Below are positions 911-62,880 of a DNA stretch of 64,000 bases, one piece after another. The notes under the pieces were generated by a model. It saw only the letters and a list, made by a program, of their open reading frames with translations, had not been told where the DNA came from and ran no database searches. The position numbers were made by a program, and so were the translations under genes. Position 1 is the stretch's first letter. Each line of letters starts with the position of its first letter. The stretch comes from Eubacteriales bacterium (lineage in GTDB: Bacteria > Bacillota > Clostridia > Oscillospirales > CAG-272), in NCBI GenBank assembly GCA_045643285.1, contig JAZUKN010000039.1, forward strand, positions 13,770 to 77,769. The letters are read 5' to 3'.

Positions 911-1281
911 CTTGCAGTCGCTTTGTAACAAAGGGGATTCCAACCGAGATGCGAAGCATCTCGACGACTTCGTTTACGAAGTCGGGAGGCGTGAATTGAC
1001 GAAGTCCTTCCACCTAAGCGGGATGATTCACAAGAGCGTCGCGTCGGTTTCGACGAAGTCGAATACCGGCTTGTCCGCCGTCCGCCCGTTCGTAAACGAA
1101 CAGGACAAAAAGATAATTTTGAAAACGTCGCAGACGTTTTCTACCTTTTGCCTATATAAAGTGCGTGCAGATCCGGCGGCGGGAGTGAACCCCTGCCCTA
1201 CGGACAAGAGGTGGATATATCGTGCGCAGCCGTGGATTTTGTGCAAGTTAAAGAAAAGTGAAGTTTGCGCTGCGCGCAAGT
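911..1281 (+). repeat. modular hairpin-array intergenic element, unit R1 (direct)
   Basis: Ordered modules are F 921-936, D 944-963, E 967-983, an H/G-like stretch, A 1121-1141, a J unit at about 1170-1246, and a TGAAGT + GC-palindrome tail at 1256-1281. It is about 85% alignable by eye to the reverse complement of 51608-51904. Confidence 0.85.
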
Positions 1282-3276
1282 TTAGTCACGCGGCGGCTTG
1301 CCGCGAAGAAATTCGCTGACTTCCTTGTCCTCCATCATGAATTCCTCAGCCGATACGCCGTCGATCGGTGTGATGTATCTCTTCGCCTGCGTCGTGAACA
1401 GCTCATAATACCTGCCGCGGTTCTTCATAAGCTCGGAGTGCGTGCCCGTTTCGATGACTTCGCCGTTCTCGATCACTATGATCTTGTTCGCAACCGTTGC
1501 GCTCGACAGACGGTGAGAAACGAATATCGTAGTTTTATCTTTGCGGAGTCGGTCGAACTGGTTGTATATATCCTGCTCGGCGATAGCGTCAAGGCTGGCT
1601 GTCGGCTCGTCGAGGATGATCACGTCCGAATCCGAATAGAACGCTCTCGCTATCGACAGCTTCTGCCACTGCCCTATTGACAGCTCCGTTCCCGTTTCCT
1701 CAAAATAGCGCATAAGAGGCGTATTGTAGCCGCCCGGCAGTTTTTCGATGAACACGCTCGCCGTCGACTGCTGTGCAGCCTCTTCGACTTTCGCGTCGTC
1801 CGCTTCCTTGCCAATCTGACCGAACATTATGTTTTCCTTGACCGAAACGGCGTACTTCCCGAAGTCCTGGAAGATTATGCCGAACATCGAATAGAGGTCT
1901 TCCGTGTCGTATTCCTTGATGTTGTAGCCGTCGAGAAGAATTTCTCCCTCGGTCGGATCGTACAGACGGGTAAGCAGTTTTATGAGCGTTGTCTTCCCTG
2001 CGCCGTTCACACCGACAAGCACACAGGTGTCTCCGGCGTCTATCGTCAGATTGACGTTGTTCAGCACCTTTCTGTCGTGCCCCGGGTAGACGAACGACAC
2101 GTTACGGAACTCAATTTTATGCCCGACGTGATGCGTAATGCGACGAGGCTCCGGAATACTCGGCTTTATCGTCTGTTCCTCGTTCATGAATCTGATGAGG
2201 TTGTCGATGAACAGCGTGCCTTCGTAGATAGTCGCCGTCGTCGAAATGAGCGAGCTTACTCCCGAACTTATCGCCTGAAGTGCGCCGATATACAGCGAAT
2301 AGTCGCCGACCTGGTACCGCCCGTCCGCTACTCCCTTTGCAATATATACGAACATCACGCAGTTTGCGGCAGTCGCAAGGACGCGAAGCCCGACGTTCCA
2401 CAGTCCCTCTCCGACGAACAGCTTCTTTAGCCCTTTGAAATACTGATCAAACGTCCGCTTGTATCTTCCGACAAAGGTATCCGACAGACCGAAAATCTTG
2501 ATCTCCTTTATCATGTCCTTGTCGGTCAGAACGTCGGAATAGTACGACATCTGCCGTCTCTCTTTCGAGTGGAAGCGGACGTAGAAATAGTTTTTCTTAC
2601 GGTAAGTAAACGTAATGACGGCAGTCGGCAGGCTGAGGATGACGAGGATCAACGGAATGAACTTCGACACCGCCGCAAGCACGATAACGAAAGAGATCAT
2701 ACTGATAACAGTGCTTATCATGTTGAAGTTGTTGTTGAGGATGTGGATAGGTCTCATGCCGGCTTCACGCTTTGCGTTCTCGAATCTCTCGTAGAAATCG
2801 GGATCGTCAAAGGACGCGAGGTCGACCTCCCGCGCCTTACGCATTATCTTGAGGTTTATATGATTCACGACAAGCTCGCCTGCTATGTTGTTGACAATAT
2901 TCGAGAGCAGTGACACAAGTGCCGTCAGCAGATTGAACGCGAACATCAGAACGAGCAATGTCACAACGGAGCGGAACTGATTCTCGCCGCCTGTCGTCAC
3001 GGATATGTACGAATCTGCAAGTGCATTCATCACGTCCTTGCCGATAATCGAGCCGATAACGGGCGTAACGCCGTTCCATATCGCCATAAAGATAAGAAAT
3101 ATGAGGATCCACGGACTTGTTTCCCATACGAGTCCGAAAATATAGAAAAGTCGGTAGAAAAATTTCGTCACCACGCGATAGATATACCCGGGAACTTCAC
3201 GGATATTCTTCGGCTTCGGCTCCTTCATTTTCTCGATCATTCTTTCTCTCTGCAACATTTTGCTGCCCGGTCCCAT
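1282..3276 (-). CDS. ABC exporter, fused permease/ATP-binding protein (multidrug/lipid exporter type)
   Basis: 664 aa with an N-terminal multi-TM domain. The NBD carries Walker A GVNGAGKTT, signature LSIGQWQ, Walker B VIILDEPT and H-loop SHRL. The start is ambiguous among Met 1, 7, 13 and 17. Confidence 0.85.
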   Translation of the reverse strand: MGPGSKMLQRERMIEKMKEPKPKNIREVPGYIYRVVTKFFYRLFYIFGLVWETSPWILIFLIFMAIWNGVTPVIGSIIGKDVMNALADSYISVTTGGENQFRSVVTLLVLMFAFNLLTALVSLLSNIVNNIAGELVVNHINLKIMRKAREVDLASFDDPDFYERFENAKREAGMRPIHILNNNFNMISTVISMISFVIVLAAVSKFIPLILVILSLPTAVITFTYRKKNYFYVRFHSKERRQMSYYSDVLTDKDMIKEIKIFGLSDTFVGRYKRTFDQYFKGLKKLFVGEGLWNVGLRVLATAANCVMFVYIAKGVADGRYQVGDYSLYIGALQAISSGVSSLISTTATIYEGTLFIDNLIRFMNEEQTIKPSIPEPRRITHHVGHKIEFRNVSFVYPGHDRKVLNNVNLTIDAGDTCVLVGVNGAGKTTLIKLLTRLYDPTEGEILLDGYNIKEYDTEDLYSMFGIIFQDFGKYAVSVKENIMFGQIGKEADDAKVEEAAQQSTASVFIEKLPGGYNTPLMRYFEETGTELSIGQWQKLSIARAFYSDSDVIILDEPTASLDAIAEQDIYNQFDRLRKDKTTIFVSHRLSSATVANKIIVIENGEVIETGTHSELMKNRGRYYELFTTQAKRYITPIDGVSAEEFMMEDKEVSEFLRGKPPRD

Positions 3277-3420
3277 TTATCAGTCCTGCTTTCTCTTTTT
3301 CTTTATAATAATATACCAATTATACAATAATCTTCACGTTTTTTCAACCGAATGCCGTTTTTTTCACATAAAAATCAAAAATCCCGACCTTTTCCGATCG
3401 GGATAATGAAGAAAAAACCG

Positions 3421-4101
3421 TTATTCGACAGCGAAGAACTGCGCGGCGACCTCCTCTGCCGAGTCTGTGTAAGACGTGATTGCGACTGTCGCAAAGCGCG
3501 GACCGTTCTTTATGATAACGCTGATAGATTCAAGTGAGAGTCCCATGTAGTCACCGTTCATGTGGAATGCCATTTGAGTCTTTCCTGCAAACTCAAACGA
3601 TTCTCTCACGATAACGAGGTTTTCGACTCCGAGTCCGTCGTATGCTTCCTTGAGCTGTTCATCGGCAATATCCATATAGTCTTCAACGGACATCGTGAGT
3701 CCCTTGAATCCGTCGTTTTCGATGTTTATTTCAATAACACCGTAGTCGGTATTGTTCATGGCGTACATTTCGGTCGCGTACGGCGCCTGTTCAAGAGCCT
3801 TTTCGTAGTCGTCGCCGAAAATATCTCCGAGAGATGAAATAACTTGTTCGTTGAGCTGGCGGATTTCGTCTTCAGTTGCGAATACCCAGTTTTCGTCGAG
3901 TGTTACGCCGATGCCGAGATATTCGCTCTTGTAGGTGTTGCCGTCGACTGTGCCGGGCGAGAATTTTTTGGTCGCGGTTTCGCCGTCCGACGATTCTTTG
4001 ATCTCTTCGCCGATTTTTTCTGCCACTTCGGCAATTTTTCCGCAGGAGACGAGAGAAACGAGCAAAACGAGTGCGAGTAAGAGTGCCGTGATCTTTTTCA
4101 T
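3421..4101 (-). CDS. lipoprotein, function unknown
   Basis: 226 aa with signal peptide MKKITALLLALVLLVSLVSCGK, which contains a lipobox Cys. No family recognised. Confidence 0.65.
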   Translation of the reverse strand: MKKITALLLALVLLVSLVSCGKIAEVAEKIGEEIKESSDGETATKKFSPGTVDGNTYKSEYLGIGVTLDENWVFATEDEIRQLNEQVISSLGDIFGDDYEKALEQAPYATEMYAMNNTDYGVIEINIENDGFKGLTMSVEDYMDIADEQLKEAYDGLGVENLVIVRESFEFAGKTQMAFHMNGDYMGLSLESISVIIKNGPRFATVAITSYTDSAEEVAAQFFAVE

Positions 4102-4188
4102 GTTGTCCTCCGAATGAAATGATTTATTAAATCTGCGACATATTATATCATATTCATTTGGTTAAGTCAAGTTAACCAAATGAAAAAC

Positions 4189-5001: not shown

Positions 5002-5088
5002 ATTTTTCTCCGATCGTGTAATATACTGTAATTATAACCCCGTTAGGCGGAAAAATCAATCGCAGTCCATCTATTTAAGGAGAAAGGT

Positions 5089-5876: not shown

Positions 5877-5945
5877 CTTTTTCGTCTTGCTTTTTCTCCG
5901 CCACTATAGTATAATTTAGAAAAAAGGTGACTGGAGGAAAAAGCG

Positions 5946-7361: not shown

Positions 7362-7640
7362 GGGGAATCTCGCCACCTCGCACGATATATCATTCTTTAT
7401 CTGTAGGGGAGGGGTTTCCCCTCCTGCTGCTGTTTTGCACAAATCTCACATAGAAGCAATGTAGAAAACACTTCGTGTTTTCAAATAATTTTTTCCACTA
7501 CGCGTGGGGCTACACAACCGAGTTCACTCCGTGAACTCGACGAGATGCTCCGCATCTCGGTGAGTCACTTTCGCGGACTCTTTGTGCGCCCCACGCGCAG
7601 TGGAAAAAACGAACCCAAACGTTAAGTTTGGACAAATCAA
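7362..7640 (-). repeat. modular hairpin-array element, unit R2 (inverted)
   Basis: Contains an inverted J unit at 7362-7445, A 7464-7482, B 7495-7509 and 7589-7603, C 7519-7539, D 7541-7559 and an I-like module at 7615-7631. Confidence 0.85.
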
Positions 7641-9145: not shown

Positions 9146-9160
9146 GGGAACCCAATAATA

Positions 9161-9196
9161 CAACAACCCCGACAGAATAATCTGTCGGGGTTGTTG
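9161..9196. terminator. bidirectional rho-independent terminator
   Basis: A perfect 16-bp stem, caacaaccccgacaga/tctgtcggggttgttg, lies between convergent genes. Confidence 0.8.
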
Positions 9197-9215
9197 TTGT
9201 CTTGTTCTGTCTGTA

Positions 9216-11001: not shown

Positions 11002-11073
11002 TGACCCGAGGGAGAATCGAACTCCCGTTACTGCCGTGAAAGGGCGGTGTCTTAGCCTCTTGACCATCGGGCC
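11002..11073 (-). tRNA. tRNA-Glu (anticodon UUC)
   Basis: The reverse complement ggcccgatggtcaagaggctaagacaccgccCTTTCACggcagtaacgggagttcgattctccctcgggtca folds as a cloverleaf. No CCA is encoded. Confidence 0.9.
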
Positions 11074-11100
11074 GAAAATGACCTGTCCGTTCGGGTAAAG

Positions 11101-11172
11101 TGACCCGAGGGGGAATCGAACCCCCGTTACTGCCGTGAAAGGGCGGTGTCTTAACCGCTTGACCATCGGGCC
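11101..11172 (-). tRNA. tRNA-Glu (anticodon UUC), second copy
   Basis: Same cloverleaf and anticodon loop as the first copy. The T-stem reads ggggg/ccccc instead of gggag/ctccc, and the D-loop differs. Confidence 0.9.
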
Positions 11173-11196
11173 GAACACTCACGGACAAGTCATTTA

Positions 11197-11273
11197 TGGT
11201 AGCGGAAGTTGGACTTGAACCCACGACCTACCGGGTATGAACCGGTTGCTCTAGCCAACTGAGCTATTCCGCC
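11197..11273 (-). tRNA. tRNA-Met, elongator type (anticodon CAU)
   Basis: The reverse complement ggcggaatagctcagttggctagagcaaccggTTCATACccggtaggtcgtgggttcaagtccaacttccgctacca has an elongator-Met-like anticodon arm. CCA is encoded. Confidence 0.85.
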
Positions 11274-12565: not shown

Positions 12566-12606
12566 AATCAGTCCGTGTGGGTGACCATGCGGACTGATTT
12601 TTTCTT
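12566..12606 (+). terminator. rho-independent terminator
   Basis: The stem aaatcagtccg/cggactgattt is followed by a T-run. Confidence 0.75.
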
Positions 12607-13020
12607 TTGGAAAAGAAAAGGGAAACACGAAGTGGTTTCATATTCTTCTTTTGTCATGTTCGCTTGTACGATTATTCGCTTACAAACGGGAATTTATTCC
12701 AAACCGTACGTTGGGCGGTGTTTTTGTCCTGCTTGTTTACAAGCGGTTCGTTTACGAACGGGCGGACAGGCGGACATTTGTCCAAACCTAACGTTTGGCA
12801 TCGGATTTGTCCTGCTTGTTTACAAGCGGGCGGACGGCTGCACTACCGATTTCACTCCGTGAACTCGGTTTGTGCGCCCCACGCGCAGTGGCAATATAAC
12901 AAATTGAAAACACGAAGTGTTTTCTTCCTTTTGCCGATGTTAGGTTAGTACAAATTCGGCGGCGGGAGTAACCCCCCCGCCCTACGCTATAAAGAGGTGT
13001 GGTGCCATGCAAAGATGAGT
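12606..13020 (+). repeat. modular hairpin-array element, unit R3 (direct)
   Basis: Contains gcttgtttacaagc twice, ggttcgtttacgaacg, I 12782-12798, a C-like module at about 12851-12868, B 12877-12891, A 12906-12924 and a J unit at about 12955-13020. Confidence 0.85.
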
Positions 13021-15121: not shown

Positions 15122-15835
15122 ATGGATTTAATCGACACTCTTCCCATTCCGACTCTCGTTGAAAAAAGCGGACTCAGGCACATCGCGTTCATCATGGACG
15201 GAAACGGACGCTGGGCAAAAGCAAAAGGTCAGCCGAGAGAATTCGGTCATAAAGTCGGAGCGGAATCGTTCCGCACTGTAGTGAAATACTGCCGAAAGAT
15301 CGGCATACAGTGCGGAACGGTCTACGCGTTCTCGACCGAGAACATCAAACGCCCCGCGCGCGAGGTCGAGGCAATTTTTAATCTGCTTTTCAAATACATA
15401 GAAGAAGCCGACGAAGAAAAGGACATCGAATTCCGCTTCATCGGCGACCCTGCCGCCCTCGGCAAAAAGATAGGCGAGCGCACAAAATGGCTCGAAGACC
15501 GCACTCGCGGCAGAAAAATAAGGCTCAATATCGCGTTCAACTACGGCGGACGGGCGGAGATCGTCCACGCGGTACAAGAGCTGATCAAAGACGGCAAGAC
15601 AGACGTGACCGAAGACGATATTTCGGCTCGCCTCTACACCGCAGGATGCCCCGATCCCGATCTGATCGTCCGTACCGGTAACGAACAGCGGATCTCGAAC
15701 TTTCTCCTGTGGCAGTGCGCGTACGCCGAGTTTTACTATTCCCCGAAGATGTGGCCCGATTTCACCCCCGAAGACGTCGACGACGCGGTAAGAGACTTCG
15801 CACGCCGGACAAGAAGATTCGGAAGCGCAGAGTAA
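15122..15835 (+). CDS. uppS: isoprenyl transferase (undecaprenyl-diphosphate synthase)
   Basis: 237 aa from ATG 15122 with HIAFIMDGNGRWA, YAFSTEN and RTGNEQRISNFLLWQ. Confidence 0.95.
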   Translation: MDLIDTLPIPTLVEKSGLRHIAFIMDGNGRWAKAKGQPREFGHKVGAESFRTVVKYCRKIGIQCGTVYAFSTENIKRPAREVEAIFNLLFKYIEEADEEKDIEFRFIGDPAALGKKIGERTKWLEDRTRGRKIRLNIAFNYGGRAEIVHAVQELIKDGKTDVTEDDISARLYTAGCPDPDLIVRTGNEQRISNFLLWQCAYAEFYYSPKMWPDFTPEDVDDAVRDFARRTRRFGSAE

Positions 15836-15840
15836 GAAGT

Positions 15841-16200
15841 AGACAAAGTGAACGAAAGTCTTGCAGTTGTTTTGTAACAAAGGGGTCCTTAGGGGGAATT
15901 GACGAAGTCCTTCCCCCTAAGCGCGGTGATTGACAAGAGCGTCGCGGTACGCTCTTGTCCGCCCCACGCGCAGTGGAAAAGAATAAATTGAAAACGTCCC
16001 CGACGTTTTCTTCCTTACAACAATCCTTCCGTCACGGCAAGCCGTGCCACCTCCCTTTACACAAGGGAGGCAGATTTCAGACCCTCGTTTGGTTTGAAGC
16101 CATGAGGTTTGCGCGGATTCCGCGGGAGGGGGAACCCCCCGCTCTACGGTGGAAAATGACATTTCGTGCGTAGCCGTGAGGTTCGTGCAAAACCGCGGAA
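15841..16200 (+). repeat. modular hairpin-array element, unit R4 (direct)
   Basis: Contains F 15871-15885, H 15888-15921, G 15932-15959, B 15962-15976, A 15990-16010, K 16021-16110 (the inverse homologue of 55165-55265) and a J unit at about 16112-16190. Confidence 0.85.
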
Positions 16201-24978: not shown

Positions 24979-25713
24979 ATGCCCGGGATCGGTACTATAG
25001 TAAATGTGGCGGCAGTCGTTGTCGGGTCACTCATCGGAATGATAACGCACAACGCGCTCCCCGAAAAGCTGCAAAACACGCTGATGAAAGCGCTCGGCGT
25101 AGCGATAATGTTCGTCGGTATCTCGTCAACGCTCGGCGAAATGCTTGTGGTCGGCGACGGCGGACGGCTCAGTGTAAACGGCACGATGCTCATGATAATC
25201 TCGCTCGTCATCGGCACTGTGATCGGCGAGCTTATCGACATAGAAGCGGCTCTCGAGCGGCTCGGAGACAGGATAAAAACGCTCAAACCGTTCAGAAACG
25301 CGGGACGCTTCACCGAGGGATTCGTTTCGTCGACCTTGCTCATCTGCATAGGCGCTATGGCGATAGTCGGCTCGATCCGCGACGGGATCAACCACGACCC
25401 GACGATGCTGTACTCAAAATCCATACTCGACTTTGTATCAACAATGGTATTTGCGTCGACTATGGGAGTCGGCGTGCTGTTCTCCGCAGTTCCGCTCGGC
25501 ATATATCAAGGCTTGATCACGCTGGTTGCCGCGCTTGTGGGAACGCACTTCATGCCGGACACAATGGTATCGGATCTGTCGCTCGTCGGCTCGGTACTGA
25601 TATTTGCGATAGGAATAAATATGTTCTTCGGGAAGAAAGTCAAGGTCGGGAATATGCTCCCGTCGCTGATAGTACCGATAGTGTACGGGGTTGCGGTGGC
25701 TTTAGTAAAGTAA
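24979..25713 (+). CDS. DUF554 family membrane protein
   Basis: 244 aa from ATG 24979. GIGTIVNVAAVVVGSLIG... and the multi-TM profile are typical of YdfK/YqgA-like DUF554. Confidence 0.7.
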   Translation: MPGIGTIVNVAAVVVGSLIGMITHNALPEKLQNTLMKALGVAIMFVGISSTLGEMLVVGDGGRLSVNGTMLMIISLVIGTVIGELIDIEAALERLGDRIKTLKPFRNAGRFTEGFVSSTLLICIGAMAIVGSIRDGINHDPTMLYSKSILDFVSTMVFASTMGVGVLFSAVPLGIYQGLITLVAALVGTHFMPDTMVSDLSLVGSVLIFAIGINMFFGKKVKVGNMLPSLIVPIVYGVAVALVK

Positions 25714-25715
25714 AA

Positions 25716-25930
25716 CAAAAAAGGAAGAAAACGTCGAGGCGTTTTCTTCCTTTTTTATGATATGCGTATGAATACGCGGACGGCGCGTTTTATCCAAACC
25801 TAACGTTTGGCGGCGGGGATGTCCTACGCGGACGGCGGACAAGAGCGTACCGCGACGCTCTTGTCAATCACCGCGCTTAGGGGGAAGGTCGCTTCGCTCT
25901 ATTCCCCCTAAGAACCCCTTTGTTGCAGAG
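25716..25930 (-). repeat. hairpin-array element, R5 left arm (inverted)
   Basis: Contains A 25723-25750 (which doubles as the DUF554 gene terminator), I 25794-25810, G 25838-25865, H 25876-25912 and inverted F 25915-25928. Confidence 0.85.
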
Positions 25931-26042
25931 TAAATGCAAAACAAAAGTACAACCTATCATTTACTATCGATTAAGTTTTACTTTATAATGAGCGGCAGCG
26001 CGCTATTACCTCACAGGTTAAATCCTCGAACACGTCGCACTC
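25931..26042 (+). repeat. conserved core between head-to-head arms (copy 1 of 2)
   Basis: atcatttaNtaNcgattaagttNtNctttataatgagcggcagcgcgct...taaatcctc...gtcgca is shared with 51905-52016. It contains TTACTA, a 17-nt spacer and TATAAT. Confidence 0.75.
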
Positions 26043-26535
26043 GCTTTGTAACAAGAGGAGTCCAACCGAGATGCGGAGCATCTCGACGACTTCGTTTACG
26101 AAGTCGGGAGGCGTGAATAGAGCTTGCTCCTTCCCCCTTTGGCGAGTAGATTGACAAGAAGGTGACGGTCTGCCTCACCGAGATGCGGAGCATCTCGTCG
26201 AGTTCACGGAGTGAACTCGGCTTGTGCGCCCCACGCGCAGTGGAAAAGAATTATTTGAAAACGTCCACGACGTTTTCTTCCTTTTGCCTATTTGAAGTGT
26301 GTGCTAATCCGCGGCGGGAGTAACGTGTATACATACGCCCTGCCCTACAGTATAGAGGGGAAGTATCGTGCAAAGCCGTGAGATTTGTGCGGTTTTATTC
26401 GGTAGGAGGGGGAACCCCTCTCCTACGGCATATAGAGGTGTGGTTTCGTGCGAAGCCGAAAAAACAGTGATACGCTCCGCGTAACGATGATCGCGCATCG
26501 CGCAAACGAAAAATTCCGCGGAATTTTTTATTTTC
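26043..26535 (+). repeat. hairpin-array element, R5 right arm (direct)
   Basis: Contains F 26044-26058, D 26066-26085, E 26088-26105, D 26178-26197, C 26199-26219, B 26229-26243, A 26257-26277, two J units (26306-26390 and 26391-26456) and tail micro-repeats at 26466-26530. Confidence 0.85.
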
Positions 26536-26582
26536 CCTCCGCATATAGTTGAGTGATAAAAAATCACTCTACCATGCGGAGG
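26536..26582 (+). promoter_or_regulatory. leader hairpin pairing with the spoIVA Shine-Dalgarno
   Basis: cctccgcat (26536-26544) pairs with atgcggagg (26574-26582), which contains the GGAGG 7 nt before GTG 26590. An inner hairpin gagtgat-aaaaa-atcactc lies at 26551-26569. Confidence 0.4.
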
Positions 26583-26589
26583 TATTTTT

Positions 26590-28104
26590 GTGACTGACAC
26601 ATCAATTTACCGTGATATAAGCGGAAGAACAAACGGCGACATCTACATCGGAGTCGTCGGGCCCGTTCGCACAGGCAAAAGCACATTCATAAGGCGCTTT
26701 ATGGAAAACGCAGTCATCCCGAACATCGCCGAGCCGTCCGTGAAAGACCGCGCGACCGATGCACTTCCCCAGTCGTCCGGCGGCAGAAACGTTATGACTA
26801 CCGAGCCGAAATTCGTCCCCGAAACGGCAGTCGACGTCTCTTTCGGCGACGGAACAGAAGCAAAAATCAAGCTCATCGACTGCGTCGGCTATATGATTCC
26901 CTCGGCCGGAGGAGGCGGCGACGGCGGAGAAATGCGAAAAGTCCGCACTCCGTGGCACGACGAACCCGTACCGTTCGACGAAGCGGCTGAGTACGGCACA
27001 AAAAAAGTCATCACCGAGCATTCGACAGTCGGCATTCTCGTTACGACCGACGGCACGATCGGCGACATCCCGAGAGAAGACTACATCGCCGCCGAAGAGA
27101 GAGCCGCACGCGAACTCACCGAGCTCGGCAAGCCGTTCGTCATCGTCCTCAATTCCGCATACCCTTCATCTGACGACGCCGTTTCTCTCGCAATTTCTCT
27201 CGAAAACAAGTATTCCGCGCCCGTCGCATTGCTCTCATGCACAGAACTGAACGGCGAGGACGTGTGGCACATTTTCGATATGCTTCTCGAAGAATTTCCT
27301 GCAAAAGAAGTCGACGTGGTCCTTCCGCCGTGGACGGCAGTGCTTCCGTCGTCGCATCCACTGAAAACCGCCATACGCGACGCGGTAGTCCGTTCTTCCG
27401 ATGAGGTGAAACGACTGCGCGATGTACGCGAATCGTTCGCTCCGTCGCTCGGCGAAAAGCTGTCGTCCTCCGTCGTCGATTTCGGTGATTACATCGGCAA
27501 AACTTCCGTCTCCGTGCGCTCGTCGGATGCAGGTTCCGGCAAAACCGTCATCGACGTACGGCTTCCCGACGGGCTGTATTTTGACGTTATTTCCGAGATG
27601 AGCGGAATATCAATGAAGAACGAAACGGAGCTTCTTGAGGCCCTTATGCGGCTCTCAGAGGCTAAAAATGAGCTTGACAGGTATGAAGACGCGATCCGCG
27701 AGGTGAACGAAACGGGCTACGGAATAGTGATGCCCGACGAACGTTCGCTCTCACTCGAAGAGCCGGAAATAATCCGTCAGCAGGGCGGCTACGGCGTTAA
27801 ACTGCGCGCGTCCGCGTCGTCGATACACATGATAAAAACAAACATCGACACCGAGATAAACCCGATAGTCGGCACGGAAGCACAGTCCGAGGAAACAGTC
27901 AACTATCTGCTCAAGGAATTTGAAGACGATCCGGCGAGCATATGGGAATCGAACATCTTCGGACGGTCTTTATACGAGCTTGTGAACGACGGTCTGCGCT
28001 CAAAACTCGAACAGCTCCCGACAGACGCACGTGCAAAGTTCGGCGAAACGCTTTCAAGAGTGATAAACGAAGGTAGTCAGGGACTTATCTGCATTATTCT
28101 TTGA
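26590..28104 (+). CDS. spoIVA: stage IV sporulation protein A (spore coat morphogenetic ATPase)
   Basis: 504 aa with a GTG start. IYRDI..RT.GDIYIGVVGPVRTGKSTFI.RFME is the characteristic SpoIVA N-terminus with Walker A. Confidence 0.93.
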   Translation: MTDTSIYRDISGRTNGDIYIGVVGPVRTGKSTFIRRFMENAVIPNIAEPSVKDRATDALPQSSGGRNVMTTEPKFVPETAVDVSFGDGTEAKIKLIDCVGYMIPSAGGGGDGGEMRKVRTPWHDEPVPFDEAAEYGTKKVITEHSTVGILVTTDGTIGDIPREDYIAAEERAARELTELGKPFVIVLNSAYPSSDDAVSLAISLENKYSAPVALLSCTELNGEDVWHIFDMLLEEFPAKEVDVVLPPWTAVLPSSHPLKTAIRDAVVRSSDEVKRLRDVRESFAPSLGEKLSSSVVDFGDYIGKTSVSVRSSDAGSGKTVIDVRLPDGLYFDVISEMSGISMKNETELLEALMRLSEAKNELDRYEDAIREVNETGYGIVMPDERSLSLEEPEIIRQQGGYGVKLRASASSIHMIKTNIDTEINPIVGTEAQSEETVNYLLKEFEDDPASIWESNIFGRSLYELVNDGLRSKLEQLPTDARAKFGETLSRVINEGSQGLICIIL

Positions 28105-28705: not shown

Positions 28706-28795
28706 CTTTTGTCGGGGTTTCACCCCAAGCCCCGCCAAAGAAACTTTTTCGAGAAAAAGTTTCCTTGGAACCTTCAAAAAGCTTTATTGATCCAG
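28706..28795. repeat. type-2 long-palindrome element (copy 1 of 2)
   Basis: ccaaagaaacttttt-cgag-aaaaagtttccttgg (28735-28768) is a 15-bp stem with 1 mismatch. It is preceded by ggggt-ttc-acccc and followed by aaccttcaaaaagct. It is homologous to 57551-57620. Confidence 0.8.
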
Positions 28796-51607: not shown

Positions 51608-51904
51608 ACGTCTTTGTAAGACGTAAAAAAGGGAGAAAACTTCGAGAGTTTTCAATTTCATCTTTTTGTCCTGCGTATGTATACGCGGCGGACGGTTTGA
51701 TTTGTCCAAACCTAACGTTTGGCGGCGTTTTGTCCTACGCGGACGGCGGACAAGCCGGTATTCGACTTCGTCGAAACCGACGCGACGCTCTTGTCAATCA
51801 CCGCGCTTAGGGGGAAGTTCGCTTCGCTCTATTCACGCCTACCGACTTCGTAAACGAAGTCGTAGAGATGCGAAGCATCTCGGTTGAACCCCTTTGTTAC
51901 AAAG
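51608..51904 (-). repeat. hairpin-array element, R6 left arm (inverted)
   Basis: Contains A 51635-51653, I 51706-51722, G/H-like modules, E 51844-51861, D 51865-51881 and F 51889-51904. Its reverse complement aligns with 921-1141. Confidence 0.85.
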
Positions 51905-52016
51905 TAATTGCAAGAATTATGCGTATCTTATCATTTAATAACGATTAAGTTATTCTTTATAATGAGCGGCAGCGCGCTTTTATTAACGACCTAAATCCTC
52001 TTCACCGTCGCATTCT
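51905..52016 (+). repeat. conserved core between head-to-head arms (copy 2 of 2)
   Basis: Shares the atcatttaataacgattaagttattctttataatgagcggcagcgcgc... block with 25931-26042. It contains TTAATA, a 17-nt spacer and TATAAT. Confidence 0.75.
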
Positions 52017-52232
52017 CTTTGTAACAAAGGGGAGTCCAGAGGGGGGGAATAGAGCTTGCTCCTTCCCTGAGTTTACGAAGTAAACTCGTTGGTCGTGTGG
52101 ATTCATAAGGAGTCCGCGAAAGTGACTCACCGAGATGCGGAGCATCTCGTCGAGTTCACGGAGTGAACTCGGCTTATGCGGCCGTCCGCCAGGACAAATA
52201 GATAATTTGAAAACACGAAGTGTTTTCTTCCT
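52017..52232 (+). repeat. hairpin-array element, R6 right arm (direct)
   Basis: Contains F 52017-52032, the C-variant gagtttac-gaa-gtaaactc, gagtccgcgaaagtgactc, D 52130-52149, C 52151-52171 and A 52209-52227. Confidence 0.85.
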
Positions 52233-52294
52233 CATCACTCAAAAAAGAAAAAATATATTATTTTTCAAAAATAAACCCCACCGGAGGTGCATCT

Positions 52295-54999: not shown

Positions 55000-55490
55000 T
55001 GTACTCCTTTTCTTTAACTTGCGCGTAGCGCAAACATCATTCGGCAAAGCCGACATCATTAAGCAAAGCGTAACATCATTTTTCTTTAACTTGCACAATT
55101 TCCACGGCCACGCACAAAACATCATTCTCCTATATACCGTATGGAACGGAACCCTCGACGTCCCGCGATTTTTCACAAACCTCACGGCTTCAAACCAAAC
55201 GAAGGTCTAAAATCTGCCTCCCTTGTGTAAAGGGAGGTGTCACGGCTTGCCGTGACGGAAGGATTGTTGTAAGGAAGAAAACGTCGTGGACGTTTTCGAA
55301 TTATTTCTCTTCCACTGCGCGTGGGGCGGACAAGCCGAGTTCACTTCGTGAACTCCATGATTCGACGCTCTTGTCAATCACCGAACCAAAGAGGGGCAAG
55401 GTGCAAGCACATTTCCCCTCTTTGGAAACTCCCCTTTGTTACAAAGTGAATGCAAAACTTTCGTTTACTTTGTCCACTTCTTACCTATTC
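55000..55490 (-). repeat. modular hairpin-array element, unit R7 (inverted, full length)
   Basis: Contains tail micro-repeats at 55018-55080, an inverted J unit at about 55095-55175 and K 55165-55265 (the inverse of 16021-16110). These are followed by A 55277-55297, B 55312-55325, C 55337-55355, a G-like module at 55361-55380 and F 55431-55446. Confidence 0.85.
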
Positions 55491-57480: not shown

Positions 57481-57519
57481 GGCTTTCCTCCCTTTTTGCT
57501 GTGTGCTTATATTATACTA

Positions 57520-57735
57520 TTTTATTTGGATTTTATCAAGCAGTTTTTGTTGGGACGCTGTCCCAAACCCTGCTCAGAAAACTTTTTCGAGAAAAAGTTT
57601 TCTGAGAACTTTCAAAAAGCTCAATATAACTGTGTCATTGCAGTTTTTGAGGATTCTTAAGGGACTTTTTCCAAAAAGTCCCTTAAGTGGAGTTTGAGGC
57701 AACGCCTCAACAAACCCGAATAATTCCTCCCTCTG
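57520..57735. repeat. type-2 long-palindrome element (copy 2 of 2, extended)
   Basis: ctcagaaaacttttt-cgag-aaaaagttttctgag (57573-57606) has a perfect 15-bp stem. cttaagggacttttt-cc-aaaaagtcccttaag (57656-57687) is also perfect. tggga-cgctg-tccca and ttgaggc-aac-gcctcaa are present as well. Confidence 0.8.
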
Positions 57736-58474: not shown

Positions 58475-59365
58475 ATGCTTGACGTATGTATCCCGGGGAC
58501 AGGCGGAACAGTGCCGAAGCTCGAACGGTTTCTCGCCTGCTGTTATATGCGCTATAACGGCGCGGGGCTTCTTATCGACTGCGGCGAGGGAACACAGCTT
58601 GCGGTCAAGAAAGCAGGCTTCTCCCTCGGAAAAATCACAACAATACTGCTCACGCACTTCCATGCCGATCACTGCAGCGGACTTCCGGGGCTTCTTCTTT
58701 CCATGGGTAACGAGGGACACACGGACACGCTTCTCATCTGCGGACCGAAAGGCGTCGACGAGGTAGTGCGGTCTCTTATGCACATCTGTCAGGAGCTTCC
58801 GTTCCGCGTAGAGACTCGTGTGCTCGGCGACTTTGATTCGTTCGAGAGGGACGGATTTTCTGTGACATCGTTCGAGGTGCGCCACTCCTGCCCGTGCCTC
58901 GGCTACGACATACGCATAAACCGCGCCGGACGGTTCGATACCGAAAAAGCGAAAAGAAACGGCGTGCCGGTCGCACTGTGGTCGCGTCTGCAAAAGGGCG
59001 AAGAGATCGACGGATACACAAAAGACATGGTGCTCGGAGAAAGCCGCCGCGGTATCCATGTGACTTACTCAACGGACACGCGCCCGTCCGATATGATCTC
59101 GACAATGGCGACGGAGGCGGATCTCCTTATATGCGAGGGAATGTTCGAGAGCGAAAAGCTCGACCGCGCAAAGGAGTCGTCGCACATGACCGTCACGGAG
59201 GCGGCTCACCTTGCAGAGGAAAGCGGATGCCGCGAGCTGTGGCTGACGCACTTCTCCCCTGCTCTGCCCGATCCGTCGGTGTGCATAGGCGAAGCAAAAG
59301 CGATATTCCCGAACACCGAAGCAGGCGTCGACGGAATGACGAAAGTGATAAGATTTGACGAATAA
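58475..59365 (+). CDS. rnz: ribonuclease Z (metallo-beta-lactamase fold)
   Basis: 296 aa from ATG 58475 with GTGG..P...R, LIDCGEGTQ, THFHADHCSGLPGLL and a C-terminal LTHFS. Confidence 0.85.
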   Translation: MLDVCIPGTGGTVPKLERFLACCYMRYNGAGLLIDCGEGTQLAVKKAGFSLGKITTILLTHFHADHCSGLPGLLLSMGNEGHTDTLLICGPKGVDEVVRSLMHICQELPFRVETRVLGDFDSFERDGFSVTSFEVRHSCPCLGYDIRINRAGRFDTEKAKRNGVPVALWSRLQKGEEIDGYTKDMVLGESRRGIHVTYSTDTRPSDMISTMATEADLLICEGMFESEKLDRAKESSHMTVTEAAHLAEESGCRELWLTHFSPALPDPSVCIGEAKAIFPNTEAGVDGMTKVIRFDE

Positions 59366-59400
59366 CATAACAAAACCGGATGAGGTAGTTTCTCATCCGG
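59305..59400 (+). repeat. direct repeat 1 (3' end of rnz plus its terminator hairpin)
   Basis: attcccgaacaccgaagcaggcgtcgacggaatgacgaaagtgataagatttgacgaataaca...ccggatgaggtagtttctcatccgg is repeated at 60748-60841. Confidence 0.9.
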
Positions 59401-59406
59401 TGTTTT
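59376..59406 (+). terminator. rnz terminator
   Basis: The stem ccggatgag/ctcatccgg is followed by tgtttttt. Confidence 0.8.
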
Positions 59407-59430
59407 TTATATATTGATTCAGAAGTATAG

Positions 59431-59667: not shown

Positions 59668-59730
59668 CTCAATTAATATTTTATATTGAGTGTTGTCTAA
59701 AATAAACCTTGTGAAACAAACGTAATGCTA

Positions 59731-59759
59731 TTGACACAAGTCAAAAAATGTTGTATAAT
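59731..59759 (+). promoter_or_regulatory. consensus sigma-70 promoter facing the Ltp-like gene
   Basis: TTGACA, exactly 17 nt of spacer and TATAAT, divergent from the XRE gene. Confidence 0.7.
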
Positions 59760-59936
59760 ATCATTAAAAGAATTCTTGTGTCGGTTGTGCCAAAAAGGCA
59801 GCATGAAAGAGGAAGCGAAAAAGATAAAGCGTGGCTGCAGCACAGTTTTCCGCTATGTGCATGAGTTTGAATCCGCTGTCGGAGCGGCGGGAGCTGTTAT
59901 TAATAGCAAATCATAATGAAGCAAAAGGAGACAGTT

Positions 59937-60635
59937 ATGGCAAAAAGTAAAATGACGCAATGCAAGGCGTGTGGAGCAGAGGTGGCTAAGTCTGCAAAAG
60001 TATGTCCTCACTGTGGAGCAAAGAATAAACAGCCTATTTTTAAGAAGTGGTGGTTTTGGGTAATCATTGTGTGTATTCTCGTTGGTGCGATTGTTGGTGG
60101 TAATGGTAACAAGACCTCCACAAATAATAGTGATCTCGTCACGGAGACGGAACCTTATAGAACTACAAAAACCACAGAAACTACAACAGAACCGACAGAA
60201 TCTATGACCACTGCTCAGAAAAATGCCCTGAAAGCTGCAAAGAACTATTTGAGTTTTTCTGCTTTTTCTCATGATGGACTTGTAAAACAGTTGGAATTTG
60301 AACAGTATTCCACTGAGGATGCAGTTTACGCAGCGGATAACTGTGGTGCTGATTGGAATGAGCAGGCTGTAAAGGCTGCAAAGAACTATTTGAGTTTCTC
60401 TGCTTTTTCTCATGATGGACTTATCGAGCAACTTGAATTTGAAAAATATACCATCGAACAGGCTACATATGGTGCAGATAATTGTGGCGCAGATTGGTTT
60501 GAACAAGCTGCCAAGAGTGCTAAAAACTATTTGAATTTTTCTTCTTTCTCAAAAGATGGATTGATCCAGCAGCTTGAATTTGAAAAATTCACCCATGAAC
60601 AAGCAGTATATGGAGCAGAACAGAACGGATATTGA
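59937..60635 (+). CDS. membrane-anchored protein with three Ltp-type (phage superinfection-exclusion lipoprotein-like) repeats
   Basis: 232 aa from ATG 59937, with AAGGAG 7 nt upstream. It has an N-terminal zinc ribbon (CKACG...CPHCG), a TM segment and a Thr-rich linker. Three ~48-aa repeats follow (A.K.AKNYL.FS.FS.DGL..QLEFE.....A.YGA...GADW.EQA). Confidence 0.65.
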   Translation: MAKSKMTQCKACGAEVAKSAKVCPHCGAKNKQPIFKKWWFWVIIVCILVGAIVGGNGNKTSTNNSDLVTETEPYRTTKTTETTTEPTESMTTAQKNALKAAKNYLSFSAFSHDGLVKQLEFEQYSTEDAVYAADNCGADWNEQAVKAAKNYLSFSAFSHDGLIEQLEFEKYTIEQATYGADNCGADWFEQAAKSAKNYLNFSSFSKDGLIQQLEFEKFTHEQAVYGAEQNGY

Positions 60636-60747
60636 TACTCTCACGGAGCGGGGCGCGTGTCTCGCTCTTCTTCTGCCTATTCGCAAAAGTACACCTTTAC
60701 AAACGGCGCAAAACAACGTTTATTTATGTCCGTTATTTGCCGAAAAC

Positions 60748-60841
60748 ATTCCCGAACACCGAAGCAGGCGTCGACGGAATGACGAAAGTGATAAGATTTG
60801 ACGAATAACAAAAAAGCCGGATGAGGTAGTTTCTCATCCGG
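60748..60841 (+). repeat. direct repeat 2 (orphan copy of the rnz 3' end plus terminator hairpin)
   Basis: The 63-nt segment is identical to 59305-59367 and the hairpin ccggatgaggtagtttctcatccgg is identical. Only the short linker differs. Confidence 0.9.
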
Positions 60842-61018
60842 TTTTTGCTATAAAAAGAATCAGCCGCAAAAAAGCCGCCCTCTCAGAGGGAGGGGGACCG
60901 CTTGCGGTGGAAGGAGTGTCCTGAACTTGTTGATCTGCTAAAAAATCTGTAACACACTCTCCCTCAGTCAACTTCGTTGACAGCTTCCTCCCGGAGGGAG
61001 CCATATTATCAGATCATC
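60842..61018. repeat. palindrome-rich spacer
   Basis: Contains ccctctcagaggg, accgcttgcggt, gtcaacttcgttgac and ctcccggagggag. It is bounded by near-identical terminator hairpins at 60811-60852 and 61019-61058. Confidence 0.55.
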
Positions 61019-61024
61019 AAAAGA

Positions 61025-61048
61025 CCGGATGAGGTAATTCTCATCCGG
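61025..61048. terminator. third copy of the terminator hairpin (serves the rubrerythrin gene on the minus strand)
   Basis: ccggatgaggtaattctcatccgg is flanked by A/T runs, and the following gtttttgctat matches 60841-60851. Confidence 0.7.
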
Positions 61049-61066
61049 TTTTTGCTATGTTTTATC

Positions 61067-61609
61067 TCAGAAGTATCTCTTGAGCAGTCCTGCAAACGCT
61101 TTACCGTGGCGGGCTTCGTCGCGTGCCATTTCGTGAACTGTGTCGTGGATCGCGTCGAGATTTGCGGCTTTTGCCATTCTCGCAAGCTCAGTCTTGCCGG
61201 CTGTCGCGCCGTTCTCTGCGGCTACGCGCATTTCAAGATTCTTCTTTGTGGAATCCGTAACGACTTCGCCGAGCATTTCAGCGAACTTAGATGCGTGTTC
61301 AGCCTCTTCGTATGCTGCCTTTTCCCAGTAAAGGGCGATTTCCGGGTATCCCTCGCGTGCGGCAACTCTTGCCATTGCGAGATACATACCCACTTCACAG
61401 CACTCGCCGTTGAAGTTTGCGCGAAGTCCTTCCTTGATCTCTTCGGGAACGTCCTTTGCAACGCCGACAACGTGCTCTGCTGCCCATGTCATATCGTCTT
61501 CCTTGATCTCGACAAACTTTTCTCCGGGTGCCTTGCAGGTCGGGCAGGACTCCGGTCTTGTTTCGCTTTCTACGATCTCACCGCAGATAAGGCATTTCCA
61601 TTTTTTCAT
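61067..61609 (-). CDS. rbr: reverse rubrerythrin (N-terminal rubredoxin-like, C-terminal ferritin-like)
   Basis: 180 aa with N-terminal CLICG...CPTC. Di-iron ExxH motifs lie in the C-terminal four-helix part ([20 protein letters not shown]). Confidence 0.85.
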
Positions 61610-61665
61610 TTTCGTTTCTCCTTTGTGTTGTTTATTTGTACCGCAAAACGCGGTTCTTGACAGTT

Positions 61666-62283: not shown

Positions 62284-62680
62284 TTTTGTTCTCCTTTTTC
62301 TTACCGATGCAGTCGGGACATATTCCCGTGAACCGCATTTCGGCGCGTTCAAGCGAAAAACCGGTCAGCCTCTCGGCGTCACCTATGATCCCGTCGGGAA
62401 CGGACACGGGGAACACGTCGATGACCTTGCCGCAGACAGAGCAGACGGCGTGCGTGTGCGGTGCGACTGTGCCGTCGAAGCGTTCCTGCCCGTCGACTGT
62501 GCCCACAGAGCGGATCAGTCCGTCGCGCTTCATTTCGGAGAGATTGCGGTAAACTGTCGCAAGGCTGAGGTGGGGAAAAGCGGGCTTCAGTCGGGTGTAT
62601 ATCCACTCGGCGGTCGGGTGAGCGGTGGTGCTTCTGAGACATTCAAGGATCGCGTCTCGCTTCGCGCTGTGCCGTTTCAT
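62276..62680 (-). CDS. perR: Fur-family transcriptional regulator (PerR-like by context)
   Basis: 134 aa with a winged-helix N-terminus (R..IL..L.....HPTAEWIY..L......LSLATVYRNL), H.H and two CxxC pairs (CSVCG, CPDC). It overlaps the downstream gene by 8 nt. Confidence 0.75.
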   Translation of the reverse strand: MKRHSAKRDAILECLRSTTAHPTAEWIYTRLKPAFPHLSLATVYRNLSEMKRDGLIRSVGTVDGQERFDGTVAPHTHAVCSVCGKVIDVFPVSVPDGIIGDAERLTGFSLERAEMRFTGICPDCIGKKKENKNG

Positions 62681-62696
62681 GTTTTCTCCTTAATAA

Positions 62697-62711
62697 TAAT
62701 GATTATCATTA
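62697..62711. promoter_or_regulatory. Fur/PerR-type operator (perfect 7-1-7 palindrome)
   Basis: TAATGATtATCATTA lies between the -10 element and the RBS of the perR-like gene. With flanks it matches the classical 19-bp Fur box GATAATGATAATCATTATC at 16/19 positions. Confidence 0.65.
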
Positions 62712-62716
62712 CTGAT

Positions 62717-62744
62717 ATTATAACACAAATTGTCGAAAAGTCAA
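62717..62744 (-). promoter_or_regulatory. sigma-70 promoter of the perR-like operon
   Basis: On the minus strand: TTGACT, a 16-nt spacer and TATAAT. Confidence 0.6.
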
Positions 62745-62749
62745 GAATA

Positions 62750-62880
62750 ATTTGAAAACGTCCCCGACGTTTTCTTCCTTTTGCCTATATAAAAGAACAA
62801 AGCGTTCGACGAGAGACCAATGGTCTCTCCTACGGTTAAAAGGTGAAGTACCGTGCGTTGCCGTGAGATTCTCCGAAATC
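62750..62880 (+). repeat. hairpin-array element, truncated unit R8 (A + J only, direct)
   Basis: A lies at 62754-62774, followed by ttccttttgcctatataaa as in R1. The J unit has the variant stem gagagacc-aa-tggtctctc, then CCTACGG and GCCGTGAGATT. Confidence 0.8.

Follow-up and report, generated by a model that had tools for sequence, protein, structure and literature searches.

Interspersed hairpin repeats with a conserved four-helix scaffold and REP-like arrays in the intergenic DNA of an uncultured Clostridia lineage

The window analysed here, a 64-kb stretch of contig JAZUKN010000039.1 (Eubacteriales bacterium, assembly GCA_045643285.1), carries one interspersed repeat family far beyond chance, with seven full and three partial copies that occupy about 3.5 kb, or about one third of its intergenic DNA. 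The long part of each unit is a single structured scaffold that is conserved and covaries strongly, rather than a set of words strung freely together, and it is accompanied by short hairpins that resemble repetitive extragenic palindromes (REPs). With a probability of roughly 0.5, the family is best read as a lineage-restricted composite repeat of an uncultured clade of spore-forming Clostridia, similar to REPs and bacterial interspersed mosaic elements (BIMEs), which would be spread by an HUH enzyme and would mark the boundaries of transcription units.

A sequence-only reading of the window had described the units (W1 to W8 in Table 1) as short palindromic words, lettered A to J, strung together in a conserved order. 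Its modular arrays stood, while the apparent order turned out to be that of a fixed four-helix scaffold with the other words in its loops. An exact-word search recovered the words at or within 1 nt of the positions given for them, some as variants with 1–3 mismatches. Word F is found at 921 and 52017 and inverted at 51889 and 55431, and its reported copies at 15871, 26044 and 25915 are such 1–3-mismatch variants. Word D lies at 944, 7541 (−), 26066, 26178 and 52130, with a one-mismatch copy at 51864; these six matches (at most one mismatch) compare with 0.01 expected. Word E lies at 966, 26088 and 51844 (−), word C at 7519 (−), 26199 and 52151 with a variant at 55337, word G at 15933 and 25839, and word H at 15888 and 25876, while a third 5' half-site of H, CTTAGGGGGA, is present at 51806 and its 3' half has diverged. 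Word B, credited with six copies, has five exact ones plus variants, and the four copies claimed for word I are three exact ones and a variant near 7620. Moreover, the scaffold motif GATTSAYAAG occurs seven times in the window versus 0.63 expected.

Self-BLASTN agreed with the claim that whole units align, revealing mosaic similarity of 70–93% among all the units listed. For instance, 55103-55484 matches 16178-15832 at 77% identity (E = 4e-75), 51739-51914 matches 1085-911 at 88% identity, and 51625-52232 matches 25717-26282 (E = 1e-56). The unit boundaries proposed earlier were about right in general, but the stretches at 12606-13020 and 7362-7640 are partial or rearranged, and 62743-62880 contains only the A hairpin and one J unit. 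In addition, 56 perfect hairpins (stem of at least 7 bp) fall in the intergenic DNA (about 10.2 kb) versus 21 in the coding DNA (about 53.8 kb), a density about 14 times higher per base. Copies also occur in at least five other lineages, and since the family is spread over other genomes and its copies are diverged, it is not a product of assembly duplication. A search of Rfam 15 with the window and 10 related loci brought only tRNAs above threshold, and the units matched no named RNA family at gathering or E-value thresholds, in keeping with the sequence-only reading, which had recognised no described repeat family; a permissive search (E <= 10) of 25600-26650 returned chance-level matches only and no HEARO. 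Likewise, nothing relevant on a named family of this kind in Clostridia or Firmicutes was found in the searchable literature, although such a result cannot prove that the family is undescribed.

The anatomy of the units was derived from a MAFFT alignment of 11 arms and then from alignment to a covariance model, R1, which was built on four minimal copies from three genomes with a hand-drawn structure. Each copy has a scaffold of about 155 nt, in which the CAAAGGGG motif (word F) is followed by the hairpins H, G, B and A in fixed order. Hairpin H has the core GGGGGAA...TTCCCCC and is joined to G (SAYAAG...CTTRTS) by a 10-nt linker ending in GATT; the 4-nt linker CGCC leads from G to B, which has a 4-bp stem and the 5-nt loop GCGYA; and a 13-nt A-rich linker leads from B to A (GAAAAC...GTTTTC), which is followed by TTCC or CTAC and by T-rich sequence. 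The lengths of linkers and loops are near-constant over 29 copies, and in the tabulated inserts the extra sequence, at most about 80 nt, is restricted to the end loops of H, G and B. These loop inserts consist of one to three near-perfect mini-hairpins, namely the words D, E, C and I, and are mostly closed as C-GNA-G. Minimal copies are W4 (15866-16017) and those at L013 6460-6615, L128 7578-7735 and L015 12282-12442, where L numbers denote contigs and loci of other genomes; the relatives' contigs were reached through SpoIVA and UvrB homologues in related metagenomic genomes. The arms stand either singly or back to back, in the latter case with their F ends facing an AT-rich core. Most of the single arms lie downstream of a gene and have the same sense as it (W1, W4, W7 and L013a).

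Model R1 finds 29 copies at E < 1e-5 in the window and, over three related metagenomic genomes and other metagenome contigs, in L013, L128, L015, L054, L078, L028, L051, L091 and L083, and additionally finds copies in L132, a contig of the NCBI metagenome-assembled genome (MAG) GCA_017559205.1. Counted on an alignment that was fitted to the model and among copies that share ancestry, 95.6% of 815 stem cells are in standard pairs, versus 43–53% when the partners are slid by 1–3 columns, and in 34 of the 35 pairs both sides have changed. Covariation scored 0.457 versus at most 0.10 in the slid controls, and none of 500 shuffles reached the observed values. Compensatory changes are seen in H (cttaggggg/ccccctaag, tcaaggggg/cccccttga and ccaaagagggg/cccctctttgg), in G (acaagagcgt/acgctcttgt, ataaggagtc/gactccttat and acaagatgtc/gacatcttgt) and in B (ccac/gtgg, ccgc/gcgg and gtcc/ggac). 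The helices are therefore compensated in the manner generally looked for in structured RNA, a signal that a fold of single-stranded DNA would give equally.

The two strands of the scaffold are not equivalent. On the F-to-A strand, G.T pairs number 30 versus 12 A.C mismatches, and 30 of the 45 triloops are GNA (29 of them closed by C-G) as compared with five TNC. This strand also ends in hairpin A, and the single arms mostly lie downstream of genes in the sense direction; both observations fit an RNA read from F to A. The sequence GCGNAGC is the centre of D, as GCGAAGC or GCGGAGC, and also the centre of A in L013 and L128. Previous work described C-GNA-G and GCGNAGC as 'extraordinarily stable' DNA mini-hairpins, of which the RNA versions are much weaker (PMC13037366). 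By analogy with REPs, the scaffold fold may act both as RNA and as single-stranded DNA.

Hairpin A has, as far as sequence can tell, the form of an intrinsic terminator, with a G+C-containing stem-loop followed by a T-run. Since an A-tract lies on its 5' side and a T-tract on its 3' side, it looks like a bidirectional intrinsic terminator, and the predicted terminator probably works in both directions; a terminator consensus scan flags it in the F-to-A direction in the window and in the opposite direction in L128 and L013. About half of the A hairpins are then followed by CTAC, that is, by GTAG at the foot on the opposite strand. The cores of the two window doubles, W5 and W6, are homologous, and each has a 10/12 match to a sigma-A-type promoter directly next to GAGCGGCAGCGCGC, a motif that three genomes have in common. 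The motif ATGAGCGGCAGCGC has six copies over three genomes. A conserved outward promoter in every double was considered but is borne out only in part, by the window cores and one L128 core, which score well. In the L013 and L128 cores, manual reading gives TTGTGA ... TGTAAAAT with a spacer of about 20 nt, which the scan did not flag. A start codon in ATGAGCGGCAGCGC (MSGSA...) was also discarded, being conserved over only 5–6 codons and lacking a ribosome-binding site, and in L055 and L051, where the cores are longer, the open reading frames (ORFs) within them are spurious.

The J units stand in tandem 3' of A, one or two in the window and up to three in L013, so that the earlier description of a terminator-like hairpin followed by J units was accurate. 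Each J unit has a variable hairpin (7–9-bp stem, 3–5-nt loop), then CTACGG and then a conserved CGTGCG...TTGTGCAA tract. On the strand opposite to F-to-A, nine of the ten J units in the window have GTAG at the hairpin foot, and one has decayed to GTAT. GTAG-tagged REPs have been defined as imperfect palindromes with a 6–13-bp stem and a short loop, preceded in most members by a GT[AG]G tetranucleotide 0–2 nt 5' of the stem foot (PMC3733652, PMC6006769), and judged by their sequence the J units fall within this definition. A strict scan for GTAG hairpins found six in the window versus 1.0 expected, eight in L013, four in L128 and none in L127, all of them within units. A loose scan gave 74 matches versus about 92 in shuffles and hence no enrichment, and only the strict scan is informative; nor is GTAG the commonest tetranucleotide at hairpin feet over the whole window. 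Among gaps of at least 150 nt, as delimited by ORFs and Pfam, units occupy two of three convergent and five of about eight tandem gaps but at most one of five divergent gaps, and the same placement pattern has been reported for REPs (PMC3733652). The sequence-only reading had named REP/BIME, BOX and Correia elements as the nearest concepts; this was correct, and REP/BIME is closer than it had claimed, since the J units answer to the GTAG-tagged definition. No convincing coding potential was seen either, as had been stated before: the mini-ORF readings fail conservation across genomes, and the one in J (AAGAGGTG ... GTG CGN AGC CGT GAG, MRSREICA) is missing in the J units of L013 and L128. At the site upstream of spoIVA, 26400-26460 compares with L012 1-63 by flanks that are 91.7% identical and J hairpins that are unrelated, the rest of the frame being conserved. 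These unrelated hairpins in a conserved frame suggest that J hairpins were swapped there as cassettes.

Comparison with relatives indicates turnover of the units. Contig L015 is syntenic with the window over 18 kb (15.6–33.6 kb of the window), and by sequence two orthologous sites are empty in it: the uppS-cdsA gap measures 14 nt in L015 versus 410 nt in the window, where it is filled by W4, and the DUF554-spoIVA gap measures 77 nt versus 877 nt, filled by W5. Unit W4 starts within the 3' end of uppS and supplies its stop codon, which accounts for the difference in the last uppS codons and stop between 15820-15840 and L015 190-230 (...GCGCAGAGTAA and then GAAGTAGAC). Conversely, L128 has a double of about 850 nt upstream of uvrB that is lacking there in the window, L127 and L130; in L127, uvrB is followed by a different gene and no unit. 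Contigs L013, L015, L128 and L132 carry copies at other, non-orthologous sites. The density of copies is uneven: L128 has five to six in 20 kb, L127 (UvrB 97% identical) has none in 13.5 kb, and L130 likewise none in 17 kb. Identity between the copies of one genome averages 0.61 (maximum 0.85, range 60–85%), no higher than between genomes, and this low identity implies an old family with slow turnover; it is kept over lineages with 75–82% protein identity. As a separate observation, L013 15635-20354 is a mobile-element block absent from the window, with serine recombinase/resolvase genes, ParB, a relaxase and an RHH protein.

Taken as a REP/BIME-like composite repeat, the family would work as follows. 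As a non-autonomous element, the repeat DNA would spread and turn over, and its hairpins would most likely be acted on in single-stranded form by an HUH/Y1 enzyme (of the RAYT, that is, REP-associated tyrosine transposase, or IS200 type) that we infer to be encoded elsewhere in the genome. A landed unit would become a transcription-unit boundary, at which A would stop transcription from either side, and its hairpin array would give a stable 3' end to the upstream mRNA or to a short transcript that begins in the core. Selection on the single-stranded F-to-A fold would then keep the stems paired through compensatory changes. The mobilising enzyme, the transcription of the arms and the roles as terminator and stabiliser are thus proposed parts of the scheme, while the membership of the family, its architecture, covariation and strand asymmetry, its absence from Rfam and the scattered positions of the copies are observed.

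Several observations weigh against this interpretation. A Pfam scan of about 50 ORFs found no transposase, integrase or Y1 nuclease in the window, in line with the sequence-only reading, and the gene tables for about 130 kb of relatives' contigs list no Y1/RAYT or other transposase. Neither terminal inverted repeats (TIRs) nor target-site duplications (TSDs) are visible at the two empty-site comparisons or at the ends of W1, W4 and W7, where the flanks are about 75% identical and the ends uncertain. A recent burst of copying is ruled out by the within-genome identities given above. The J units are oriented head to tail, whereas REPINs and BIMEs are typically inverted dimers. Between the two arms of a double, which are too dissimilar for it, no inverted BLAST match was obtained, and a REPIN-like long hairpin formed by them was rejected for this reason. 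The linker lengths are fixed and unpaired motifs are conserved beyond the needs of a terminator, which suggests a specific partner, either protein or RNA. Promoter-like sites are good in only some cores, and the GNA loops, being extra-stable as DNA, clash with a purely RNA-level role. The way the pair counts were obtained, as described above, has to be set on the same side.

A purely selfish non-autonomous transposon with no host role (of the MITE kind, a miniature inverted-repeat transposable element, or PATE-like), the stems of which would be needed by the transposition machinery and which would derive from several master copies, agrees well with the presence or absence of units at orthologous sites, with their other positions in relatives, with the uneven density (the empty 13.5 kb of L127, for example) and with the copy that replaces the uppS 3' end and stop codon; comparable arguments led Croucher et al. 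to judge BOX, RUP and SPRITE in this way (PMC3049150). It is nevertheless rather unlikely in our judgement, because dead, decaying copies would have broken stems, whereas 95.6% of the stem cells are paired here despite identities of 60–85%, and because placement is biased to the 3' side of genes, with no TIRs or TSDs at the ends inspected and no transposase nearby. Another explanation is a multicopy family of independent small-RNA genes, in which each arm would be a structured RNA of about 170–300 nt with its own core promoter (TATAAT + GAGCGGCAGCGC), ended at A and acting in trans or binding a dedicated protein, and the repeats in the DNA would be no more than the many gene copies. Conserved unpaired motifs, fixed linkers and variable 'expansion' hairpins confined to end loops are found likewise in structured RNAs, and to these may be added the strong covariation, the excess of G.U over A.C, the loop asymmetry on the terminator-ended strand, the 10/12 promoter matches at the same distance from the three-genome motif in both window cores, and the maintenance of an old family in lineages with 75–82% protein identity. 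But the single arms W1, W4 and W7 have neither a promoter-like site nor the GAGCGGCAGCGC extension, the L013 and L015 cores have a degenerate -10 box, and only one of the two L128 doubles has a good site. Ten copies in 64 kb, 60–85% identical and at non-syntenic sites, are unlike known small-RNA paralogues, and partial or rearranged copies such as W2, W3 and W8 are common, all of which makes this explanation unlikely.

A further explanation takes the C-GNA-G mini-hairpins as single-stranded-DNA signals that would act on one strand, for example in priming or initiation, as promoters of the hairpin type known from ssi or phage N4, or as chromosome-organising binding sites. In its favour, 30 of 45 triloops are GNA on one strand, and the D centre corresponds to the extra-stable DNA mini-hairpin used by the N4 virion RNA polymerase and found near primase sites (PMC13037366), but both arm orientations occur within a few hundred bases and show no bias along the window, so there is no consistent relation to the replication fork. 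Moreover, no link was seen to N4-like phages or plasmid ssi sites, two scaffold patterns having zero matches in viral contigs, and we regard this explanation as improbable. Even less credit can be given to relics of guide-RNA genes (omega RNA of IscB/TnpB, bridge RNA of IS110) or to another known structured RNA without its protein gene: a multi-hairpin RNA of 150–300 nt with a conserved 5' motif, a 3' terminator and many copies is a superficial likeness only, Rfam 15 (HEARO included) gave no match even at E <= 10, no IscB, TnpB or IS110 gene is present in the window or the relatives' contigs, and the cores hold no plausible ORF. A more speculative proposal, which we consider doubtful, is that the scaffold represents a new class of structured nucleic-acid element with a dedicated partner, in which the end loops would be landing pads for mobile C-GNA-G mini-hairpins and hairpins would insert into hairpins on single-stranded DNA or RNA. 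This proposal takes in the nested D hairpins of an unrelated Eubacteriales MAG and the B-type hairpins found in chains in gut phages and other phyla, and the family would then be more than a further set of REPs.

If the reading as a REP/BIME-like composite repeat is right, a type of biology that was worked out almost wholly in Proteobacteria would reach uncultured gut-type Clostridia, in a build more elaborate than that of known members, with a scaffold, a bidirectional terminator, tagged arrays and mini-hairpins inserted in loops. The units also have practical consequences, as they break metagenome assemblies (the relatives' contigs L012, L014 and L129 end inside units) and give rise to false ORF calls. 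Many operons probably owe their 3' ends to these units, and annotation with R1 would improve the annotation of MAGs. In addition, the one-strand excess of DNA-type GNA hairpins in a fold that looks like RNA allows selection at the DNA level to be asked about separately from that at the RNA level, and the module-in-loop pattern suggests an insertion process.

The composition and coordinates of the units are given in Table 1.

Table 1. Units of the repeat family in the window, with their parts, gene setting and the matches on which each assignment is based.
Unit	Position	Strand	Parts	Setting	Basis
W1	895..1281	+	Single arm; scaffold 917-1148; D and E in H loop, E-like hairpin in G loop, another in B loop; A hairpin 1121-1141, then CTAC; one J, GTAG hairpin 1178-1201 (−)	Convergent genes on sides	R1 52.5 bits, E = 6.5e-12
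W2	7362..7640	−	Partial/rearranged, without F, H, G; order I, inverted B, small hairpin, D, C, B, A (7464-7482), J (GTAG hairpin 7403-7424, +)	Antisense to upstream HAD gene; adjoins acetyltransferase gene start	R1 7457-7596 (−) 28.7 bits, 7474-7637 (+) 21.1 bits; self-inverted BLAST 7489-7609
W3	12606..13020	+	Rearranged double without F, H, G; A-type hairpin 12620-12639; inverted B and I modules; C-like hairpin; B 12877; A 12906-12924; J unit, GTAG hairpin 12961-12985 (−)	Convergent genes on sides	R1 12743-12931 37.6 bits
W4	15836..16200	+	Minimal full scaffold 15866-16017; F 15871, H 15888-15921, G 15932-15959, B 15962-15976, A 15990-16010; two extra hairpins at 16030-16075; one J, GTAG hairpin 16122-16147 (−)	Sense, directly after uppS	R1 163.7 bits; RNA fold z-score -4.6
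W5 left arm	25715..25937	−	F', H', G', B', inserted block with I, A' (25717-25756, 17-bp stem)	A' directly after DUF554 gene stop codon	R1 25720-25934, 120.7 bits; terminator-like site
W5 core	25938..26019	+	AT-rich; TTTACT-18-TATAAT at 25960-25989, then GAGCGGCAGCGCGC	Faces right arm	10/12 promoter match
W5 right arm	26020..26460	+	D and E before H; G loop with small hairpin, D, C; B 26229; A 26257-26277; two tandem J units, ~26290-26385 and 26386-26460; second J hairpin 26402-26426 with GTAG at one end and CTAC at the other ('double foot')		R1 26087-26284 65.7 bits; fold z-score -4.15; terminator-like site
W6 left arm	51625..51915	−	F', D' (loop flipped to GAA on + strand), E', H', G' with insert, B', I block, A' 51635-51653	A' after SLH gene stop codon	R1 51628-51862 58.2 bits; BLAST 88% identity to W1
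W6 core	51916..51994	+	TTAATA-17-TATAAT at 51935-51963, then GAGCGGCAGCGCGC		Homologous to W5 core
W6 right arm	51995..52235	+	F 52017; inserted hairpin 52069-52087 in H; D and C in G loop; B variant; A 52209-52227; no J unit	A just upstream of glpK	R1 52013-52234 54.9 bits
W7	55072..55484	−	Single arm; scaffold 55270-55450; C in G loop; A 55277-55297; extra hairpins 55217-55256; J tag decayed to GTAT (~55137-55167)	Sense after uvrB, upstream of sdaA	R1 86.1 bits; 77% identity to W4 over 383 nt
W8	62743..62880	+	Fragment: A 62754-62774 and one J, perfect GTAG-tagged hairpin 62811-62833 (−)	Upstream of tRNA-Met	R1 partial 62685-62781 29.6 bits; BLAST to A regions of W4, W5

By its gene content in the Pfam scan, the window belongs to the chromosome of a spore-forming member of the Clostridia. 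It contains genes for PolC, SpoIVA, SLH proteins and UvrB, the uppS-cdsA-dxr-rseP-ispG cluster, glycoside hydrolases and an Opp transporter. Among named relatives, the closest are MAGs that carry the label Clostridia or Ruminococcaceae bacterium and have a UvrB identity of 82–83%. A tRNA-Glu, tRNA-Glu, tRNA-Met cluster lies at 11002-11273 on the − strand, and another tRNA-Met at 62963-63037, directly 3' of unit W8. A perfect 17-bp palindrome is present at 9160-9197 between convergent genes.

Two other small repeat families were seen in the window. The second family consists of long AT-rich perfect palindromes such as ctcagaaaactttttcgagaaaaagttttctgag, at 57562-57621, 57656-57687 and 28724-28783; they are conserved in L127 1360-1502, and the gaps in which they lie hold scaffold doubles in L128, L013 and L015. 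The third repeat, at 59305-59422, 60748-60863 and 61015-61076, is 91% identical over 118 nt and includes the hairpin accggatgagg...cctcatccggt. It is located upstream of and between two lipoprotein-like genes (59916-60635, with Ltp domains, and 60977-61660), and a copy is found in L130 3595-3676.

Single hairpins of the units recur elsewhere as well. The 18-mer around hairpin B, GCCGTCCGCGTAGGACAA, is found in unrelated metagenomic lineages (L016, L034, L040, L047, L085 and L093, which are Ga0256405 contigs; L052; L038/L084) and in two groups of gut phage contigs (L100, L103, L105 and L112; L101, L104 and L115-119). It always lies within chains of short GC-rich hairpins with GCGYA or GNRA loops, such as that in the gap of about 270 nt downstream of a 747-aa gene in L100, and these chains have no match to an Rfam family. 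The B-type chains, which thus recur in gut phages and other phyla, may form a widespread class of mini-hairpin chains. Phage-contig matches to a 16-mer of B were considered as family members and rejected, as they belong to such other chains; the viral contigs have no match to either of the two scaffold patterns. A scan of a genome collection for word D gave three real-looking matches in one Eubacteriales MAG and eight in unrelated high-GC bacteria and archaea, the latter probably by chance. In that MAG, Eubacteriales bacterium SGB_1749, exact D (CCGAGATGCGRAGCATCTCG) occurs at L003 6976-6998, L006 1151-1170 and L007 5489-5508, each time nested in a hairpin ctctcc...ggagag beside 'cctctcagtcagctgcgctgacagctctcc'-type repeats, with no other similarity to the window.

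Among known repeat systems, the REP/BIME elements of E. coli, Pseudomonas and Stenotrophomonas share most with the units described here. Both have GTAG at the foot of a 7–9-bp stem with a 3–5-nt loop (here in J and in roughly one half of the A hairpins), occur together with other conserved motifs in mosaic blocks between genes, lie mostly in convergent or same-direction gaps downstream of coding regions, and contain G.T pairs that hint at a role at the RNA level. REPs have been reported to be nested inside other palindromes and placed downstream of genes, with G.T pairs in them (PMC3733652). However, REP/BIME elements lack the four-helix scaffold of about 155 nt and the conserved unpaired motifs that make up most of each unit here, and they form inverted dimers where the J units are head-to-tail tandems. 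They also have a cognate RAYT, which was found neither in the window nor in the relatives' contigs; under the criteria for GTAG-tagged REPs, a RAYT gene is usually flanked by the same REPs (REPtron). The main text of the GTAG/CGTC survey makes no mention of Firmicutes, while the host here is a Clostridia lineage. No similarity to the E. coli REP sequences was noticed, although no formal comparison was made.

The Firmicute repeats offer other likenesses. BOX of Streptococcus pneumoniae (boxA, a variable number of boxB, boxC) is likewise a modular intergenic repeat with variable numbers of internal modules, and it has been reported to have extensive predicted secondary structure, co-transcription with its neighbours, a distribution that is patchy even in close relatives and low current movement (PMC3049150). 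Compared by modular concept and not by sequence, BOX repeats one internal box, whereas the variable modules here are hairpins in the loops of a fixed scaffold; by description, the terminator-like end and the flanking GTAG hairpins further set the present units apart. SPRITE, a rho-independent terminator-like element of S. pneumoniae, is also an interspersed repeat that mimics an intrinsic terminator (PMC3049150), with a length of about 105 nt (PMC3184786), but it is a single short element, while in the present units three other helices precede the terminator-like hairpin, which has REP-like arrays beside it. The bcr1 element of the Bacillus cereus group resembles the present units in its length of about 155 nt, its intergenic location, its positions that are not conserved between relatives and its compensatory changes, and it is transcribed, its folded RNA structure being kept by such changes (PMC3184786). 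It differs in its 5-bp terminal direct repeats and its two-stem, cruciform-like fold, in place of which the units here have four serial hairpins, loop inserts and GTAG arrays, with no direct repeats found.

Correia elements (NEMIS/CREE) of Neisseria can be likened to the present units as abundant intergenic repeats. They are classical MITEs with TIRs and a TA duplication, neither of which was seen in the units here. Neighbouring genes have been reported to gain promoters, sites for protein binding and RNA hairpins from Correia elements (PMC3184786). Overall, the present family resembles these known kinds in its ecology and, through the J units, answers to the sequence definition of REPs, but it differs from them in its four-helix scaffold with fixed spacing, in hairpin inserts that are confined to loops, and in REP-like hairpins that are tandem rather than inverted.

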